Shown piece by piece: positions 550 to 9,983 of a stretch of DNA of 64,000 nt. The DNA lies in contig NJBH01000006.1 of the NCBI GenBank assembly GCA_005223125.1, positions 97,507-161,506 on the forward strand, read 5' to 3'. Below the pieces are notes generated by a model. That model worked only from the letters and a program-made list of their open reading frames with translations, was not told the DNA's origin and ran no database searches. This DNA is from Promethearchaeota archaeon Loki_b32 (GTDB taxonomy: Archaea; Asgardarchaeota; Lokiarchaeia; Sigyniarchaeales; SOKP01). Positions within the stretch are counted from its first letter, which is position 1, and every line of letters begins with the position of its first letter. Made by a program: the position numbers and the translations under genes.

Positions 550-885
550 ATGAGTTTTGAAAATGAATTTGATGAGGATTTAGTTGGGAAGGAGCCTGTA
601 AAATCTAAAACTCCCGCATCTAAAACCCCTTCAACAGGAAAGAAATTGACTTTGTATTTCATGTCTACTATTGGACCCGGTGAAAAGAAGGAAAAATTAA
701 CAGTAAATAACAATAATCGTGTGAGTGATATTAAACAAACACTTGGAAATTTATTTGGACTTAATCCAAACGATTTTCATTTATCATCTGGAGGTATTAC
801 AATGGATGAAAATAGCTACTTAAACGATTATAGTGTAAGTGATGGCGATGATATTCTTTTGATCCCTGCGAGTACTGCGGGGTAA
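550..885 (+). CDS. Ubiquitin-like (beta-grasp) modifier with N-terminal extension and C-terminal -STAG
   Basis: Residues ~32-111 align by eye with ubiquitin (RVSDIKQTL ~ TIENVKAKI; LSSGGITMDENSYLNDYSV ~ LIFAGKQLEDGRTLSDYNI). Ends in Gly. First gene of an E1-E2-JAMM cluster. Confidence 0.85.
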   Translation: MSFENEFDEDLVGKEPVKSKTPASKTPSTGKKLTLYFMSTIGPGEKKEKLTVNNNNRVSDIKQTLGNLFGLNPNDFHLSSGGITMDENSYLNDYSVSDGDDILLIPASTAG

Positions 886-952: not shown

Positions 953-976
953 TAATAATTATAATTGGTGATTATA

Positions 977-2200
977 TTGGGAAAGAGTTCAGATTTTTTT
1001 AGTAGAGGCCTGACATCGGAAGAGAGAAATTTATACGACCGCCAATTTAGGCTTGAGGGATGGTCTCAGAAACTAGTAAAAAACACTCGAGTTTTGATAG
1101 TTGGAGTTGGGGGATTAGGTTGCGAAATCGCAAAAAATCTGGCAATGTTAGGAATAGGACATTTAGATTTAGTAGATTTAGATATTATTGAACATTCAAA
1201 CTTAAATCGCCAAATTTTATTTACGGGTGCTAAATTGGGGGAACCTAAAGCAATCGTGGCGGCAAAAAAATTAACTGAAATAAATCCAAATATTAATGTA
1301 AATGGTTATCATACTTCCTTAGAGCGCCTAGATCCTGCAATATATAGAGCTGCTGACGTTATTATTGGAGGTCTTGACTCCATGAACGCTCGATTGAATT
1401 TAAACGCTCAATGTGTAAGATTTAGGAAACCACTAGTAGATGGAGGTGTGTCAGGTTATCATGGTCATGTCTACACGATTTTTCCATTCAAAAATGCATG
1501 TTATGAATGTAACCCGCTCCCTATAGCTGAAAGTGATGAGATGGCTGCATGTACTGTAGTAGGAATACCAAGAAAGAGGATTCACTGCATTTTTAAAGGA
1601 GATATGGCCTTTAAAGAAAAATTCGATAGGGATCCTAATCCAAAAAGTGTTGTTGATATTAAATTCATTCAAAAAGTTGCTAATGAATTAGTAAATAAAC
1701 ATAATTTTCTCCCGGAATATACTCAAGATGATATTGTAAAGATTATCGATAGACATGATCCAGGAATAATTACCATAAATGCTGTCATTTCAGCATTACA
1801 ATCTCATGAAGCTATAAAAATCCTTCATTGGAAAAAAGGACATATAGGTTTAGGTGAACCAATAAAAACCTATGTTATTTTCAATGCAATGACAATGATG
1901 TTTTATCATATTGAAAAAAAAAGAAATCCAGAATGTTCCCAATGTGGAAAAAAAGTTCGAAGATTTGTCGTGAAATTAAGAGCACGTTCTCCATGTATTA
2001 ATATAATCAAAGTATTAGAAAAACATGGTTTTAAGTTAGATCCTGATCTCGAACCCGTAATAACATTATTGGATTTTAATGATATTAAGATGATTGATCT
2101 AGAACAGAATCCAATTGAAAATGGTTTAAGAAATTACGAATTTATGACTGCTGCAGGGTTTAAAGATGGAGAAATTTTTGTAACCTTAAAATTAAAATAA
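977..2200 (+). CDS. Ubiquitin-like activating enzyme E1 (ThiF family, UBA3/SAE2-like)
   Basis: YDRQ, GVGGLGCE, SNLNRQ, GLDSMNAR, CYEC and CSQC zinc pairs, catalytic-Cys segment AACTVVGIPRKRIHCI. TTG at 977 follows a GGTGA SD (track start 965). Confidence 0.93.
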   Translation: MGKSSDFFSRGLTSEERNLYDRQFRLEGWSQKLVKNTRVLIVGVGGLGCEIAKNLAMLGIGHLDLVDLDIIEHSNLNRQILFTGAKLGEPKAIVAAKKLTEINPNINVNGYHTSLERLDPAIYRAADVIIGGLDSMNARLNLNAQCVRFRKPLVDGGVSGYHGHVYTIFPFKNACYECNPLPIAESDEMAACTVVGIPRKRIHCIFKGDMAFKEKFDRDPNPKSVVDIKFIQKVANELVNKHNFLPEYTQDDIVKIIDRHDPGIITINAVISALQSHEAIKILHWKKGHIGLGEPIKTYVIFNAMTMMFYHIEKKRNPECSQCGKKVRRFVVKLRARSPCINIIKVLEKHGFKLDPDLEPVITLLDFNDIKMIDLEQNPIENGLRNYEFMTAAGFKDGEIFVTLKLK

Positions 2201-2282: not shown

Positions 2283-2810
2283 ATGAGTATAAGAAGTAGT
2301 AGAATCTCGCAAGATTTTGCGGGATTAAAAAAATTGTATAAACAAGGAACTATTATTCAGTTAAAACCATTTAATCCAAAAAGAAAGAGTATTGATCATT
2401 TAGCAATTACTATTAAAGGACCTAAAGGTACTGTTTATGCAGGTGGTCTTTTTAAATTAGAAATGAAATTCCCTGCTCAGTATCCTAGACAACCACCTTT
2501 TGTAAGACTGCATACTCCAATCTGGCATCCAAATTTTTGGGCAAAACCAAGTGAATATAAAGGACAAAGAAATATTTGTTTAGCATTAGTAGATCCCTCC
2601 CTAACTGGTAAAAGAGGAGGGTGGAGTCCATCAAAAACAGCGGTTACCGTTGTTCAAGCAATAATTGCTATGTTAAACACACGAGGTAAATATGTAAATC
2701 CTACCGATGTTTTTAATAAAAAAGCTGCGATAGAGATGATGAAAAATCAGAAGTTTTTTGAGAAAAAAGTGAAGAATCTCGTGAAAAAGTATGCAAATAA
2801 AAAATGGTGA
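2283..2810 (+). CDS. Ubiquitin-conjugating enzyme E2 (UBC fold)
   Basis: GPKGTVYAGGLFKL, FPAQYPRQPP, HPN motif, catalytic Cys in NICL, WSP motif. Confidence 0.95.
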   Translation: MSIRSSRISQDFAGLKKLYKQGTIIQLKPFNPKRKSIDHLAITIKGPKGTVYAGGLFKLEMKFPAQYPRQPPFVRLHTPIWHPNFWAKPSEYKGQRNICLALVDPSLTGKRGGWSPSKTAVTVVQAIIAMLNTRGKYVNPTDVFNKKAAIEMMKNQKFFEKKVKNLVKKYANKKW

Positions 2811-2818
2811 TTACTTTA

Positions 2819-3631
2819 ATGGAGAATAAAGAATTAGCCAATAGTTCAATCAAAGACGTAATTAAAAAGAAGATAAAAGAAAAAATAAAACAAGAATTAC
2901 TAGATGAAATATGTGAAGAACTTAAATTAGAGGAAGAAGAATTAACAGAAGAGATTTGTTCAATGCTTACTAAAAAAACCTCTGCCAAACCAATAATAAA
3001 ACTTTCTAAGATACCTACCGTCAAAATAGAAGAGAAAAAGCATGTTGAAATACAAATAGAAGAGGAAATACAAAAAGAAGTTTATATTTCAGTAAAAAGT
3101 ATACTTAAAATAGCAAGTCATGCGCTTAAATATGCAAATTCTAAGATTCGAAGAGAGAATTGGGTGGAAGTTATTGGGCTTCTAGCAGGAAAATTAGATA
3201 AAAACGAAATACTCCATATTGAAGATGCTTACCCAATGGGGCATGGAACGGCTGTATATGCCGAAATTAAAGATTATAAGAATTATGTGAGGGCATTTAA
3301 AGATATTAAAAAACAGAGATTATTTATATGTGGATGGTATCATAGTCATCCTTCATATGGTCTTTTTATGAGTAATGAAGATATGGGCACTCAAGCAAGA
3401 TATCAAACACTTTGGGATAAAGCAGTTGCTCTTGTTGTTGATCCATACCTAATTGACGGTACTTCACCAGGCTTTGAGATTTATAGCGCTAATTTGAAAT
3501 CAAAAACATGGTATCCATTATTATACGGGATTAAAGGGTCATTAGATGTAAGAATGTTACCTGAAATATTGAAATTTATGCATCCCCTCATTGAAGGAAA
3601 GCCAGTATATCTTGAATATGATGAAGATTAA
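2819..3631 (+). CDS. JAMM/MPN+ metallo-isopeptidase (Rpn11/CSN5-like) with charged N-terminal extension
   Basis: EVIGLLAG, GWYHSHPSYGLFMSNED (H-x-H-x7-S-x2-D), AVALVVDP. ATG at 2819 follows GGTGA (track start 2804). Confidence 0.92.
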   Translation: MENKELANSSIKDVIKKKIKEKIKQELLDEICEELKLEEEELTEEICSMLTKKTSAKPIIKLSKIPTVKIEEKKHVEIQIEEEIQKEVYISVKSILKIASHALKYANSKIRRENWVEVIGLLAGKLDKNEILHIEDAYPMGHGTAVYAEIKDYKNYVRAFKDIKKQRLFICGWYHSHPSYGLFMSNEDMGTQARYQTLWDKAVALVVDPYLIDGTSPGFEIYSANLKSKTWYPLLYGIKGSLDVRMLPEILKFMHPLIEGKPVYLEYDED

Positions 3632-3659: not shown

Positions 3660-4850
3660 ATGGCAAAATTTAAATCGGTAGTAATTTTTCTAGCGATATT
3701 TTGCTTAATTGGTATAATCCATGGTGCTCTTCTAAATTCAATTAATGTTTTTGTAACTTGGTTGTTAATTGGAATTTGGTTAATTTATTCTTTCAAAGTT
3801 CTAAAAAATATCAAACAATATCGTGAATTTAATTCTCCTCATAATACTGCTTTTTTTACCATTGGTCCTGTTTTAATGGGAATTTTTTATTCAGTGTGGA
3901 GTAATTTCACAGGTTTATTAGGAGAAAATCTTTTAGAAAGTACAGATTTATATTTAAGTTGGTGGAGTATACTATTTGGATTTCCCTATATATTATATGG
4001 TTCGATTTCTTTATACCGTTGTTTTAAAAAGTATAATGTAATACATTTTAGAAGGAAATCAATAAAAGCACGCACATTTGGTTTTATTTTAGGAATCTCC
4101 ATTCTCCTGTTTATAATTATATACTGGATAAGTTTTTATTCAATTATAGACTTTTATGAATCTTTAATAACACCTCTCCATTTTTTAATAGATCTCAATC
4201 TATTAATATTACTTATCAGTACTATACTACTATTAATAGTCCCTGGCTTGTTTGGTGCTCAAACTCCATTACCTCAACTAACTAGAGATTACATAGCAAG
4301 ACGTACAAGCAGATTAAACAATTTAACATCACCCACCCCTAATCGACAAAGACAAACTGTTCGTACTACAACTAGATCATCTCCAACACCTTCAACAAGA
4401 ACAGTTGCTCGCACAACAAGATCAGTTTCTCGTTCTGCAAGATCAACGCCTACAACAAATAGATATTCTACAAGCTCTAGAGAAAAAAAAACTACTCAAA
4501 CTGTAGGCAGAAGAGCAACAGGACCAGTGCGAAGAAAAAAAACTGTTACAAAAATAAGCAATTTCAATTTATATAAACCAAAAGCAGCACGTCTTTCAAC
4601 AGAGGATTTTAAATGTATTTTTTGTTTTAAGTTACCAGAATATCCTAAAGATAATGGTAGAGGAATAATATTGTGTCCAAAATGTAAATACCCCGCTCAT
4701 GCTGACGAATTTAAAGATTGGCTTCAAAGTTCTAACCTATGTTCTCGGTGTAATACACCAATTCCCTCAAGCTTTAGAAGAAATCCTAAAACCATAAGTG
4801 TAAAAAATTATATAATCGTCATTAAGCATTTTGTAAGTAATAGGAGATGA
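3660..4850 (+). CDS. Polytopic membrane protein with C-terminal RING-variant zinc finger, candidate E3 ligase
   Basis: About 6 hydrophobic segments in residues 1-200, an R/T/S-rich linker, then CIFC-x16-CPKC-x4-H-x2-E-x3-W-x6-CSRC. GGTGA SD. Last gene of the Ubl operon. Confidence 0.7.
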   Translation: MAKFKSVVIFLAIFCLIGIIHGALLNSINVFVTWLLIGIWLIYSFKVLKNIKQYREFNSPHNTAFFTIGPVLMGIFYSVWSNFTGLLGENLLESTDLYLSWWSILFGFPYILYGSISLYRCFKKYNVIHFRRKSIKARTFGFILGISILLFIIIYWISFYSIIDFYESLITPLHFLIDLNLLILLISTILLLIVPGLFGAQTPLPQLTRDYIARRTSRLNNLTSPTPNRQRQTVRTTTRSSPTPSTRTVARTTRSVSRSARSTPTTNRYSTSSREKKTTQTVGRRATGPVRRKKTVTKISNFNLYKPKAARLSTEDFKCIFCFKLPEYPKDNGRGIILCPKCKYPAHADEFKDWLQSSNLCSRCNTPIPSSFRRNPKTISVKNYIIVIKHFVSNRR

Positions 4851-4883: not shown

Positions 4884-5819
4884 TTATTTTAACTTTTGTT
4901 TTAACGCCCCAATAGTAGTTTTTAATTCAGCATAAACATTAAAAATATGAATTGATTCAAAACTTTCAATTTTAAATTTGATTTCGAAATTATCTTCAAT
5001 GTTAGGAAAATCTCTTAACATGAAGTTTTTTGCCATTTCTCTAATCACATCTTCTGAAAATAACGGTTTTAGATGAGCGCTTCTTACTAATTCAGCTTCT
5101 TCAGGTCTTTTTAACACAGATTGTATTTTCCCACTCATTGAGTCTTCTATTACTTCAATAATATCTAAAACATCAATTTTATGGCCTGTTAAATCCTTTA
5201 TTTGGACAATTATTGATCCAATAGATCTTTGATTATGTGAGGAAAAAGGAAGTATATTTATTAATTTCTTAAGATCTTCTTCGCTAACATTTATATCTTT
5301 TCTTGTTTTAATTATTTCTTCGGCATATTCTTGAGACATTTCTTTAGCACAGGGACATACAGTTATCCCGACTGCGCTCGCACCCACAAAATAGTTAAAA
5401 TCAATCTTTCCAGCTTCATCTCTTTTAGCTCTTACAAAAGAACTAATATTATAAGATTTTTGGATATTTCTGGAATTATTTTCTCTTACCTGAACAATTA
5501 TTTTTCCTTCTAATTTAACTTCCGCTTTTGATGAATATGGATGTCTTTCTAAGAGTTTTTTAACGATTCTATCACCTACTAATTCAATTGTAGGCGTTGG
5601 TTTGTAAATTACTTCATTTATAACTTCCTCTATTGTTTCAGAAGTACGCGACATATGTATTCCACGCTGTTTTGCGGGAAGATTAATCAGTGCTGAGATC
5701 GTGGGGTAAAATGAGTATTTTTTATTTTCTTGTACGATTTCAACTTTTTTCTCTAGTTCTACTATTCCAACTTTATCAATTGCAATGTCAATTGCTGAAC
5801 CGGAATCCTGTAAATCCAT
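4884..5819 (-). CDS. mptA: GTP cyclohydrolase IV (FolE2/MptA family)
   Basis: RGIHMSR, TVCPC, SHNQR, LKRPEE, ESIH motifs. Confidence 0.9.
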   Translation of the reverse strand: MDLQDSGSAIDIAIDKVGIVELEKKVEIVQENKKYSFYPTISALINLPAKQRGIHMSRTSETIEEVINEVIYKPTPTIELVGDRIVKKLLERHPYSSKAEVKLEGKIIVQVRENNSRNIQKSYNISSFVRAKRDEAGKIDFNYFVGASAVGITVCPCAKEMSQEYAEEIIKTRKDINVSEEDLKKLINILPFSSHNQRSIGSIIVQIKDLTGHKIDVLDIIEVIEDSMSGKIQSVLKRPEEAELVRSAHLKPLFSEDVIREMAKNFMLRDFPNIEDNFEIKFKIESFESIHIFNVYAELKTTIGALKQKLK

Positions 5820-5929
5820 TTTAAACTCGTGAATTTTAAATCACCAGAATTAAAAAATAATTTTATTTTGTTCTATTCATAAAGAAGATTAGATAAAATA
5901 TAAAATAATTTGAATTTTTCAAGAACTAA

Positions 5930-7099
5930 ATGCCTAATAAAAGTATTTTCAGCAAATTTGCATTAATAGGAGAAGATTTAGAACTTAAGCAAGATGTTTT
6001 ATTAGAAATCGATGAAGAAGGAAAGATAATTAACATCACAGATAATAATCCAGATATACACATCGAAATTTTTAAAAACGGTCAAAATTATTTGCTAATA
6101 CCAGGCTTTATTAATTCTCATACACATATAGGTGATAATTTTGCGAAAGAAGTTGGTTTTAATAAAGATTTGGTGGAGGTAGTTGCCCCACCATTTGGTC
6201 TTAAACATAAATTATTAAGACAAATCCCTGAACACATTAAAATTAAAGGAATTCAAAACGCAGTTTTAGAAATGCTTTCAAATGGTATTATATTTTTCAT
6301 TGATTTTAGAGAGGGAGGTATTGAAGGTGTAAATCTTCTAAAAAAAGCACTTATTAAGAGTCCAATTAACTATATAATCTTAGGGCGATTTATGGATGAA
6401 AGTGAAATAGATTCTTATTTTGATTTAGCAGATGGAGTTGGATTATCTAGTTATAAACAAATTACTTCATCAAATGAAAAATATATTATAGCAGCCAAAC
6501 AGAAATATAAAAAAATCATTGCTTGTCATTGTGCTGAAAAAACTCGCATTGATCTTTTAATAAATAAAATGTTTAATGAGAATCTTGTTGATGTCATCGT
6601 TCATGGTACTAAATTTATCAAAAAAGATTTAGAAAAATTGATAGAAAATAAAAAATCTCTTGTTTTATGTCCTCGTTGTAATGGATATTTTGGAACTGGA
6701 TTTCCACCCATTAATGAAATTATAAAATTAGGAATTCCCTTATCATTAGGAACAGATAATTTAATGGTAAATAATCCCGATTTATTTGAAGAAATACGAT
6801 ATTTTTATCGGATTTCGAGAGTATTATGTAGTTATGATAAAGAACTTCAGTTTACTTCTAAAGATTTATTGAAAATGGTAACAATAAACGCCGCAAAAAA
6901 TTTTAATCTTGAAAATGAGTTTGGTTCAATTTCAAAAGGAAAATTTGCTGATCTTTTTATAGTCGATCTCAATTGTCCAAATCTTTTTTCTTCTATATTA
7001 GATTCTAATAATATATATAATTTAATTACTCAAAGAGTAAAATCAGAAAATATAATTAAGACCTATATTAAAGGAGAATTAGTGTTTGAAAGAAAGTAA
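5930..7099 (+). CDS. Metal-dependent amidohydrolase (deaminase-like)
   Basis: PGFINSHTHIGD, HCAE, VHG, LGTD, TINAA, GKFADL. Confidence 0.85.
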   Translation: MPNKSIFSKFALIGEDLELKQDVLLEIDEEGKIINITDNNPDIHIEIFKNGQNYLLIPGFINSHTHIGDNFAKEVGFNKDLVEVVAPPFGLKHKLLRQIPEHIKIKGIQNAVLEMLSNGIIFFIDFREGGIEGVNLLKKALIKSPINYIILGRFMDESEIDSYFDLADGVGLSSYKQITSSNEKYIIAAKQKYKKIIACHCAEKTRIDLLINKMFNENLVDVIVHGTKFIKKDLEKLIENKKSLVLCPRCNGYFGTGFPPINEIIKLGIPLSLGTDNLMVNNPDLFEEIRYFYRISRVLCSYDKELQFTSKDLLKMVTINAAKNFNLENEFGSISKGKFADLFIVDLNCPNLFSSILDSNNIYNLITQRVKSENIIKTYIKGELVFERK

Positions 7100-7751
7100 C
7101 AAGCCCTATGTCATTTTAAGCGCTGCAATGACTATTGATGGTAAAATCGCCACTAAGAAGGGCGATTCAGAATTATCCGATAAAGCGGATTGGAAAGAAG
7201 TACATAAACTCCGAACTCAAGTTGATGCTATAATGGTAGGTAAGGGGACTATTTTAAAAGACAATCCAAAATTGCATATTAAATATTATAATCATCGAGG
7301 ATATTATAGACTTGTTCTAGACAGTAATTTAACGATTCCATTAGATTCCAATGTCATATCTTTTCAACAAGAAATTTATCCTACAATTATTTGTACCACT
7401 GAAAATGTACCATTGGATAAAATAAAAAAGTATGAAGATAAAGGTGTTAAAATTATAAATGTTGGAGATGACAAACGCGTGAGTCTAATAAAACTTTTAC
7501 CTATCCTAAAAAATTTAGGAATAAATACCATATTACTGGAAGGTGGTGGCAATTTGAATTGGAGTTTTATAGAAAATAATTTAATTAATGAAATACGGTT
7601 AACTATAGCTCCCTGGATTGTTGGTGGAAAGGAAGCAACAAGCCTAGTAGAAGGAATAGGATTTGAAAAGATAGTAAGTGCACCTAGATTTGAGCTTTTT
7701 GATGTTAAAGTTAGAACTTATTACATTACTCTAAGATATAAAAGGAAGTAG
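7086..7751 (+). CDS. arfC: 2,5-diamino-6-ribosylamino-4(3H)-pyrimidinone 5'-phosphate reductase
   Basis: AAMTIDGKIAT, DAIMVGKGT..DNP, LLEGGG (RibD C-terminal domain). Context next to cofGH. Confidence 0.88.
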   Translation: MKESNKPYVILSAAMTIDGKIATKKGDSELSDKADWKEVHKLRTQVDAIMVGKGTILKDNPKLHIKYYNHRGYYRLVLDSNLTIPLDSNVISFQQEIYPTIICTTENVPLDKIKKYEDKGVKIINVGDDKRVSLIKLLPILKNLGINTILLEGGGNLNWSFIENNLINEIRLTIAPWIVGGKEATSLVEGIGFEKIVSAPRFELFDVKVRTYYITLRYKRK

Positions 7752-8860
7752 TGATGAGGGAAAATAAAATCACACAGTTAAAAAACCTGAAATTTAATAA
7801 AATAAGAGAAAAGGTTAAAGAAATAAAAACTGAATTATCTGAACAAGAACGTAGTGTGATTACTTACTCGAGAAATTTCACACTTTCTCTTTCAAACTAT
7901 TGTGTTAATCAGTGTGGATATTGTTATTATAATTATAAAATTCCTAAGCTAAATAGTGAAGATAATGTAATATTGCTTAGGAATGAGCAAATTGTGTCAT
8001 ATATTCAAGAAGCTCTTCAATATAATTGTAAAGAAGCCCTGATTATGTCTGGAGAACGCCCTGGAAGTTTTCAAGAAGTTAAAGAAGAATTGAAAAAAAG
8101 AAATTGTTCAGATTTTATAGAGTATGTAAAAAACGTTTGTACATATTTACTTGATTCTAAAATTCTACCTCATTCAAATTTAGGATTTTTAACTTATGAT
8201 GAATTAATGGATTTAAAAAAATACAATGCTAGTATGGGGTTGATGCTTGAGGGTACTAGCATGAAACTTTTTAAAAAAGGGGAAGTTCATGAACATTCTC
8301 CTGGAAAATTACCAAAAAAGAGAATAAAGCACATTACTGATGCCGGAAAATTAAAAATTCCGCTTACTACGGGATTATTGGTCGGTATTGGAGAGGTAAT
8401 TGCAGATATCATAGAAGATTTACATTTAATAAAAAATATCCATAAAAAATATGGACATATTCAAGAAGTTATTATTCAGAATTTTGTAAGGAAAGATAAG
8501 ATTCCATATCAACCTAAAAAGCCAATTGCCATCGAAGAGGTGCTAAGAATAACTGGAATAGCTCGAATTATTTTAGAAAATGAAATTGCGATTCAAGTTC
8601 CGCCTAACCTCATAGCTGGTTTTGAAAAGCATTTTCTCGATATGGGAGTTGATGATTTTGGAGGTATTTCTCCGTTTACATTAGATTATATAAATCCTAA
8701 AAAAATTTGGCCTCAAATTGATAATTTGAATAAAATTTGTAACGATAAAGGTTTTACACTCAAAGAGAGACTCCCTATATATGATAAGTTTGTAAATAAA
8801 GAAGGATTTTGCTCAGAAAATATTAAAAAAATAATTGATAATATAAATCTAGATGACTAA
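7751..8860 (+). CDS. cofG: Fo synthase subunit CofG
   Basis: TYSRN, CVNQCGYC, SMGLMLE, TTGLLVGIGE, HIQEVIIQNF, IQVPPNL, DFGGISP. Confidence 0.93.
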   Translation: MMRENKITQLKNLKFNKIREKVKEIKTELSEQERSVITYSRNFTLSLSNYCVNQCGYCYYNYKIPKLNSEDNVILLRNEQIVSYIQEALQYNCKEALIMSGERPGSFQEVKEELKKRNCSDFIEYVKNVCTYLLDSKILPHSNLGFLTYDELMDLKKYNASMGLMLEGTSMKLFKKGEVHEHSPGKLPKKRIKHITDAGKLKIPLTTGLLVGIGEVIADIIEDLHLIKNIHKKYGHIQEVIIQNFVRKDKIPYQPKKPIAIEEVLRITGIARIILENEIAIQVPPNLIAGFEKHFLDMGVDDFGGISPFTLDYINPKKIWPQIDNLNKICNDKGFTLKERLPIYDKFVNKEGFCSENIKKIIDNINLDD

Positions 8861-9983
8861 TTCGCAATTTTTTGAACATATTAAATCAAATATAAAAGCG
8901 ATTTTACAGAAGGCTTTAAATTCAGAGGAATTAAGCTCAGATGAAGCGCTAGAGTTATTAAAAGTAAAGGGAAAAGAATTCTTTGCCCTTCAGTATGTAG
9001 CTGATCAGATCTGCTTTGAAAAAATGCAAAATATTGTAACCTTCGTAATAAATAGAAATATTAACTTTACAAATATTTGCTATCAGCATTGTAAATTCTG
9101 TTCTTTCAGTTTGCCAGCAACCCACACTAACGCATTCTTACTCACTATTGAACAAATTAGTGAAAAAGTAATTGAGGCAAAAAAAATTGGATGTACTGAA
9201 GTTTGTATTCAAGGAGGTATAAATCCAGATTTAAAGTTTGAATTTTATTTAGATATACTTAAAATTGTTAAGAAAATAGATCCAAATATTCATATTCATG
9301 CTTTTTCTCCACAAGAATTATTTTACATGTCAAAATTGTATGAGAACTCAATAGAAGATACTTTAAAGGAATTAAAAAAAGCGGGATTAGATTCAATTCC
9401 AGGAACAGCAGCAGAGATTTTAGTAGATGATATTCGGAAAATTATATGTCCTAATAAAGTTTCTACTCTACAATGGATTAACATCATTACTACTGCCCAT
9501 AATTTGGGAATCCCAACGACATCGACAATAATGTACGGGCATATAGAATCATTAAATGATCGAGTTACACATTTAGATGTTTTAAGAGAAATTCAAAAAG
9601 AAACTAAAGGCTTTACTGAACTTGTACCTTTACCTTTTGTAAAAGAAAACCCTATGTTATCTAAACTTGAAGATTTTCCGTTAAATCCAACCTATGGAAT
9701 GGATGATTTAAAATTATTTTGTGTATCTCGGATATTTTTAAATGATTATATTGATAATATACAATGCAGTTGGGTAAAATTAGGTCCAAAATTTGCTCAG
9801 GTGTCTTTAAATTTTGGAGTAAACGATTTCTCAGGAACATTAATGGAAGAAAATATATCAAGAAGCGCTGGAGCAGAATTTGGTCAATATTTACCACCCG
9901 AAGAAATAATTAATATAGTTAAAGCTGCTGGAAAGAAACCTACACAAAGGGATACTCTATATAATATATTGAAATATTATTAA
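8853..9983 (+). CDS. cofH: Fo synthase subunit CofH
   Basis: NRNINFTNICYQHCKFC, PGTAAEIL, TIMYGH, NIQCSWVKLG, GTLMEENISRSAG. Confidence 0.93.
   Translation: MTNSQFFEHIKSNIKAILQKALNSEELSSDEALELLKVKGKEFFALQYVADQICFEKMQNIVTFVINRNINFTNICYQHCKFCSFSLPATHTNAFLLTIEQISEKVIEAKKIGCTEVCIQGGINPDLKFEFYLDILKIVKKIDPNIHIHAFSPQELFYMSKLYENSIEDTLKELKKAGLDSIPGTAAEILVDDIRKIICPNKVSTLQWINIITTAHNLGIPTTSTIMYGHIESLNDRVTHLDVLREIQKETKGFTELVPLPFVKENPMLSKLEDFPLNPTYGMDDLKLFCVSRIFLNDYIDNIQCSWVKLGPKFAQVSLNFGVNDFSGTLMEENISRSAGAEFGQYLPPEEIINIVKAAGKKPTQRDTLYNILKYY

Follow-up and report, generated by a model that had tools for sequence, protein, structure and literature searches.

A single-domain E1 within a conserved conjugation operon

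The locus studied here raises the question of whether one archaeal chain can carry what the eukaryotic NEDD8 and SUMO E1s divide between two subunits, and whether such a chain, acting as a homodimer, could represent the form of the canonical E1s before their duplication, as an initial annotation had proposed. The gene lies in a window of 64,000 nucleotides from Promethearchaeota archaeon Loki_b32 (contig NJBH01000006.1), at 977..2200 on the plus strand with its stop at 2200, and encodes 407 aa with one adenylation domain (Pfam ThiF, E=1e-61), as delineated by Pfam, start-codon comparison and AlphaFold. The TTG start is preceded by a Shine-Dalgarno-like GGTGA (967..971), kept in most loci, and the codon interchanges among TTG, ATG and GTG (59, 17 and 2 of 78 orthologous loci). 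On the strength of these two features the start at 977 was judged right; a longer start at 965 was ruled out by the start-codon interchange and the position of the Shine-Dalgarno sequence. We consider it probable that this enzyme, the E1 of a Lokiarchaeia Ubl-E1-E2-JAB-RING operon, is a symmetric homodimer with two canonical-type active sites.

The features of the E1 and the genes of its operon described below are on the plus strand. Alignment located an arginine finger, Arg22, in a YDRQ motif (1034..1045) within an in-frame N-terminal stretch (1010-1060). It is followed by the active adenylation motifs GxGxxG, Asp67/Asp69, SNLNRQ, Lys91 and Asp134 (1103..1378), by DGGVSGYHGH (1439-1468) and by two Zn pairs, CYEC (1499..1510, invariant in 64 sequences) and CSQC (1934..1945). 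Cys192 (TGT, 1550..1552) was invariant and aligned with the catalytic Cys of UBA2, UBA3 and UBA1, and PGIIT follows in frame at 1760. The motifs named in the initial annotation, this Cys codon included, were all in frame where it had read them. Its likening of the N-terminus to SAE1/NAE1 did not prove specific, because YxRQ is general to MoeB/ThiF and nearly all archaeal E1s; its own caution that the motif is general to ThiF/MoeB holds in our alignment of MoeB/ThiF and archaeal E1s. The Arg finger was conserved among orthologues, and close homologues, 69-88% identical, came almost entirely from records labelled Promethearchaeota or bearing other Asgard names.

The E1 gene belongs to a co-oriented run encoding a Ubl, the E1, an E2, a JAB protein and a membrane RING-like protein. 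The Ubl (550..885, Pfam ubiquitin), the probable substrate, has a conserved acidic N-terminal tail and ends in ASTAG (Ala72, Ala75, Gly76). Pfam and locus comparison identified a UBC-fold E2 with HPN and Cys99 (2283..2810), and Pfam and motif analysis a JAB/MPN+ isopeptidase with an intact HxHx7Sx2D (2804..3631). The last gene (3660..4850) encodes a conserved member of the operon, a polytopic membrane protein that has an S/T/R-rich linker and, at its C-terminus, seven Cys/His in a RING-like finger; it had no Pfam RING match, and its Cys/His pattern makes it a candidate E3. The cluster holds Ubl, E2, JAB and RING genes, a Cluster I/II trait, with the RING assigned from the Cys/His pattern alone. 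Across 79 loci the operon was conserved wherever flanks exist: the Ubl lay directly upstream of the E1 in 76/76 loci with enough flank, and the E2 downstream in 77/77. A short propeptide follows the terminal Gly of the Ubl in 21 of 69 scored loci (~30%), which would fit trimming by the JAB and point to this Gly as the functional terminus.

Between the Ubl and E1 genes, a G+C-rich hairpin followed by a T run (918-942), at chance level in shuffles, could set the Ubl level above that of the E1; a promoter and terminator scan, run with a bacterial model, was likewise at chance level. Two more genes conserved near the operon lie just to the left of the window (L080:7771-8193 and 8244-9032), one for a second Ubl ending in STAG and one for a membrane protein whose C-terminal domain is Ubl-like; a third STAG Ubl, 87% identical, lies on contig C70 (L082:2563-2901). 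Further along the window, at 4884-9983, inspection by eye revealed a GTP cyclohydrolase-like gene, an amidohydrolase, a RibD-C-like reductase and two radical-SAM genes resembling CofG/CofH.

The catalytic-Cys and C-terminal domains resemble those of UBA3

The E1 was modelled with AlphaFold at a pLDDT of 89.5. Foldseek ranked UBA3 first and UBA2 second for the whole model, and the rigid core alone superposed best on MoeB/ThiF (Z 31). From the catalytic Cys to Pro262 the chain carries a 70-aa insert, which AlphaFold modelling, alignment and profile matching delineate as a three-helix catalytic-Cys domain of the UBA3 SCCH type (1553..1759), the helices following Cys192. The corresponding insert measures 60-80 aa in UBA3, 4-6 in MoeB/ThiF, 16-32 in the common Asgard ~340-aa E1s, ~190 in UBA2 and ~260 in UBA1. 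A pooled archaeal profile of the insert, taken after the CT...HC motif, matched the UBA3 insert with 94% probability (E 1e-7); a Loki-only profile matched weakly (9%), so that significance belongs to the pooled profile only. This match supports homology of the helical insert to the small Cys domain of UBA3, and the inserted catalytic-Cys half-domain of the initial annotation is thereby upheld.

The remaining 83 aa form a C-terminal domain (1949..2197) that fold prediction and structure search identify as a ubiquitin-fold domain (UFD), the predicted dock of the E2. Residues 325-407 folded alone gave a pLDDT of 95, and their top structural match among 48,161 chains was the E2-binding domain of UBA3 (Z 9.5, rmsd 2.4 A, 80 residues), followed by the UFD of UBA2 (Z 8.1); both ranked above ubiquitin itself, and Foldseek agreed. 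The predicted structure thus supports a ubiquitin fold most like the E2-binding domains of UBA3 and UBA2, as had been anticipated for this part of the chain. The Pfam models E2_bind (PF08825, none at E 0.1), UAE_UbL, E1_UFD and SCCH gave no match in the E1. Among the traits of canonical eukaryotic E1s, a separate helical catalytic-Cys domain and a C-terminal UFD are present; an inactive adenylation domain, FCCH and loss of the Arg finger are absent, Arg22 being kept.

One chain, modelled as a homodimer

MoeB and the inactive eukaryotic halves supply the Arg finger in trans. In the alignment, MoeB/ThiF and UBA1-IAD (16/16) retained this residue, which UBA1-AAD, UBA2 and UBA3 have lost. The catalytic motifs follow the reverse pattern among the eukaryotic halves, being lost in UBA1-IAD. 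The Lokiarchaeia E1 has both an Arg finger and a full active site in one ThiF domain. Its Arg finger is simply the ancestral MoeB state, common to nearly all archaeal E1s sampled. Since finger and active site together form this ancestral condition, widespread in archaeal E1s, the enzyme is no special mosaic. The proposal that one chain bears the hallmarks of both subunits therefore stands as regards the co-occurrence of an Arg finger with a full active site, but not as a combination particular to this E1.

A two-copy model of the E1 scored 0.78, and the best of three controls 0.00; by the mark applied, 20 of 30 solved homodimers pass, as does 1 of 23 single chains. Between runs, at least 87% of contacts agreed, with a pLDDT of at least 82, and the modelled interface included residues 18-27, the segment of the Arg finger, and 73-78, the SNLNR segment. 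The homodimer that the initial annotation had put forward for modelling thus passed its controls, and the model suggests that the chain probably pairs with itself; because MoeB and ThiF dimers have been solved, the pass may show likeness to them and not binding.

We also considered whether the E1 forms half of a two-part enzyme whose other subunit is a second E1-fold protein, such as a 527-aa paralogue. A related paralogue does lie on contig C30, and related adenylation domains could cross-pair. However, active motifs are present in each of the four E1-fold genes of the genome (4.13 Mb, 95.5% complete), and searching the genome even with a profile of inactive halves returned no inactive partner. 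Moreover, the operon held no partner gene in any of the 79 loci, orthologues keep the Arg finger, and the candidate subunits have different gate residues (Tyr vs Gln). A heterodimer of this kind is thus quite improbable; the Arg finger is kept, and therefore no NAE1/SAE1 partner would be needed.

The proposed symmetric homodimer has counterparts on several sides. A single adenylation domain and, on the model's prediction, a trans Arg finger and a two-fold dimer are common to it and to MoeB/ThiF, UbaA, UBA4 and UBA5, homodimeric non-canonical E1s without a separate Cys domain (PMC11354881); MoeB/ThiF differ in their short insert and in having no UFD. A helical Cys domain in the crossover loop is shared with BilD and UBA1, and an E1-E2-JAB-Ubl operon with BilD, the E1 of the bacterial BilABCD system. 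BilD and UBA1 are single-chain pseudo-dimers of an inactive and an active domain (BilD: bioRxiv 2023.09.26.559546), whereas the Lokiarchaeia E1 has one adenylation domain plus a UFD. With UBA3 and UBA2/SAE2 it shares active adenylation motifs, two Zn pairs, the context of the catalytic Cys and the UFD, and with UBA3 also a ~70-aa helical Cys domain and a bulky gate residue combined with an Ala72 Ubl, as in UBA3/NEDD8. Unlike UBA3 and UBA2, it keeps the Arg finger, lacks FCCH, and has a Tyr gate and a Ubl ending in AG.

The E1 is placed as a cousin of the eukaryotic catalytic clade

Trees were inferred from 228 columns of the adenylation core, leaving out the Cys domain and UFD, and were rooted on MoeB/ThiF; SAE1, NAE1, UBA4, UBA5 and ATG7 were left out, and the only inactive halves present were those of UBA1 (UBA1-IAD), whose branch was very long and unresolved. 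UBA3, UBA2 and UBA1-AAD came out as one clade (99-100/93-95) inside a set of archaeal E1s of ~410 aa, which possess a Cys domain and UFD. The Lokiarchaeia E1, these archaeal E1s and the eukaryotic catalytic clade grouped together in three taxon sets (83/88, 98/91 and 97/87), the first tree giving only 83/88. In all three trees, the archaeal row closest to eukaryotes was not the E1 studied here but P0146 (98/97, 97/97 and 87/92), after which a Hod/Freyr/Ranarchaeia group also came closer. Because other archaeal ~410-aa E1s sit closer, the enzyme is not the sister of the catalytic clade; as the core alignment places it, it is a Lokiarchaeia cousin, and P0146 would be a better candidate for the eukaryotic sister lineage. 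P0146 (L122:783-3358) comes from a cluster labelled Helarchaeota and has its own Ub-E1-E2-JAB operon.

Identification as a UBA3 orthologue was rejected: a position as sister to UBA3 alone failed the AU test (p=0.003), and there was no E2_bind match though the fold matches. The closeness to UBA3 noted earlier holds for the whole structural model, where UBA3 and UBA2 are the top matches, and does not extend to orthology. A broader version of this reading makes the E1 the actual precursor, or sister, lineage of the eukaryotic canonical E1s, or else a UBA3 orthologue. Its size, Cys domain and UFD are most like those of UBA3, and a placement of the Loki-407 group as sister to UBA1-AAD/UBA2/UBA3 survives the AU test (p=0.12). 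Against it are the closer positions of P0146 and then the Hod/Freyr/Ranarchaeia group in the best trees, the rejected sister relation to UBA3, and the presence of close orthologues in only a minority of Asgard families, and we regard it as unlikely. Placing all eukaryotic halves in one clade, as a pre-duplication origin needs, costs 3.2 lnL and survives the AU test (p=0.33). The E1 architecture is therefore compatible with a pre-duplication state, as the initial annotation proposed, with the qualification that the lineage itself is a cousin and not a sister.

Trees and sequence scores also bear on whether the protein belongs with MoeB, UBA4 or UBA5, or is even a MoeB/UbaA-like activator of a sulfur carrier or SAMP, with extra domains and no E2 cascade. 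In the best trees it branches apart from ThiF/MoeB and the Cluster III E1s, although a grouping with MoeB/ThiF, at an lnL 26 lower, formally survives the AU test (p=0.09). Among solved relatives, sequence scores were 142 bits for UBA2, 131-134 for Uba1, 129 for UBA3 and 117 for MoeB, with weaker matches to SAE1 (64), UBA5 (64) and Uba4 (62); pairwise scores against UBA4/UBA5 were half those of UBA2/UBA3 or less. The AU value, the core superposition described above and the best NCBIfam scores, which go to MoeB/ThiF models, would speak for a sulfur-carrier enzyme. Yet those scores are all far below cut-off (UbaA 112 vs 450), the chain has the Cys domain and UFD that are absent from MoeB/ThiF/UbaA, its linkage to an intact E2 and JAB is fixed, and the genome has a separate MoeB-clade gene. 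We give a sulfur-carrier function hardly any credence.

Residue 72 of the Ubl and a putative second pathway

By alignment, Tyr166 of the E1 (1472..1474) falls in the column of the gate for Ubl residue 72, which we take to be that of Arg190 in UBA3 numbering and of Gln in Uba1. The column held Tyr in 69/69 scored loci, paired with Ala72 or Ser72 of the Ubl. The ~340-aa Asgard E1s have Gln there (9/9) and adjoin Arg72-GG ubiquitins. Three genomes (G045, G015 and G036) carry both operons, and these are related genomes, not independent cases. In eukaryotes, residue 72 gates the choice of E1, UBA3 Arg190 rejecting Arg72 and Uba1 Gln accepting it (PMC3731359); by analogy with UBA3 Arg190, Tyr166 probably keeps out ubiquitins of the Arg72 type. 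The covariation, read from sequence, supports the neighbouring Ubl as the substrate and suggests two separated Ubl pathways. The literature searched, incompletely covered, gave no description of a Tyr gate together with a Ubl that has Ala72 and ends in AG.

With its Ala72 the Ubl at 550-885 resembles NEDD8, and its last two residues are AG in place of GG. The genome is without the common ~340-aa Asgard E1, and two further systems are present: a 527-aa E1 near an E2 whose match is split over two frames (L081:8773-10356 and 6040-6450), and a cluster of a JAB, a 294-aa E1, an E2-like gene and a GG-Ubl (L083:3587-5958).

A tandem E1 family with one dead and one live half

Among representatives, the search turned up a protein of 800 aa that has two ThiF domains and belongs to a tandem E1 family of 730-880 aa (L084:1291-3693, P0124; L124-L127; P0525-P0544). 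The family comprises ~20 clusters labelled Lokiarchaeia/Sigynarchaeota, was found in 1 of 121 class genomes sampled, and usually lies outside conjugation operons. In its N-terminal half the Arg finger persists while SNLxRQ, the catalytic Asp, the two Zn pairs and the Cys are gone; in its C-terminal half only the Arg finger is missing, the same dead-plus-live layout as in UBA1. In the first tree the N-terminal halves grouped with UBA1-IAD (94/95), which we attribute to long-branch attraction: once UBA1-IAD was removed, the tandem halves joined each other and the 527-aa Loki paralogues (95/94), which points to an independent duplication, apparently of the 527-aa paralogue. The family shows that single-domain E1s of this grade can yield a pseudo-dimer, which supports the idea of the initial annotation as a route that eukaryotic E1s may have taken. 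Dead-plus-live tandem Asgard E1s were not described in the literature searched, again with incomplete coverage.

Discussion

Our main reading is built on sequence, motifs, predicted folds and the operon, from which we infer the chemistry, the dimer in the cell, E2 docking and the gate. The following scheme is drawn from the canonical E1 cycle. Each active site would bind ATP-Mg by its own motifs together with Arg22 supplied in trans by the other subunit, and would adenylate the terminal Gly of the neighbouring AG-ending Ubl, the JAB trimming the propeptide where present. Cys192, on the UBA3-like helical domain, would then form a thioester with the Ubl, and the UFD would dock the E2 so that the Ubl passes to E2 Cys99. 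The membrane RING-like protein may choose the targets, and the JAB would both mature the Ubl and remove the tag.

The architecture of a Cys domain followed by a C-terminal Ubl domain was published in 2017 for Caldiarchaeum, Loki- and Heimdallarchaeota E1s, which limits the surprise of the present finding. Hennell James et al. rebuilt the C. subterraneum cascade in vitro, using an E1-E2 complex, described a Cys-containing domain and a C-terminal UBL domain in Cluster I/II archaeal E1s with the NEDD8 E1 (3GZN) as closest structure, and recorded UBL domains in E1s of Loki- and Heimdallarchaeota, among them Lokiarchaeum GC14_75 KKK43157 (PMC5654768). A 2024 review repeated the UBA3 likeness of the archaeal E1 (PMC11354881). 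The Caldiarchaeum subterraneum CSUB_C1476 system shares with ours the Ub-E1-E2-RING-JAB cluster, the Cys domain, the UBL domain and the N-terminal motif, the CSUB_C1476 cloning primer reading YDRQLRLEG (PMC5654768); a primer-derived search gave no match to the C. subterraneum E1 gene. The 2017 model places inactive and active Rossmann folds inside one chain (PMC5654768), whereas the E1 described here has one domain and a predicted homodimer. The 2017 systems also differ in a Ubl ending in GG with Arg72, as against AG with Ala72 here, and in a small soluble RING, as against a membrane protein. No statement on the oligomeric state of an archaeal E1 or on a homodimer was found in the text searched (PMC5654768), nor one on homodimeric Asgard E1s in the wider literature searched, incompletely covered.

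An architecture such as we see in this E1 would be expected before inactive and active halves diverged; the lineage itself is an extant cousin of the eukaryotic enzymes, not the line from which they directly descend. The joint case, in which the enzyme is a true homodimer, serves an orthogonal NEDD8-like second pathway and has relatives that independently replayed the split in tandem, is tentative, its chances falling slightly short of even. The route from a symmetric MoeB dimer to an asymmetric eukaryotic E1 is usually argued from its end states, and this family offers a small, intact intermediate with one adenylation domain, a Cys domain and a UFD. Because its own Ubl, E2 and JAB are available for expression alongside it, the E1 lends itself to tests of dimer state, half-site reactivity and UFD movement. 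The tandem relatives suggest that a division into inactive and active halves arose more than once. If our reading is true, the E1 would serve as a present-day model of the enzyme before eukaryotes made that division. The Tyr gate and the Ala72 AG Ubl would then define a pathway orthogonal to Arg72-GG ubiquitin in the same Asgard cells, and the covariation of the gate suggests that Asgard archaea already keep parallel Ubl pathways apart by the residue-72 rule.
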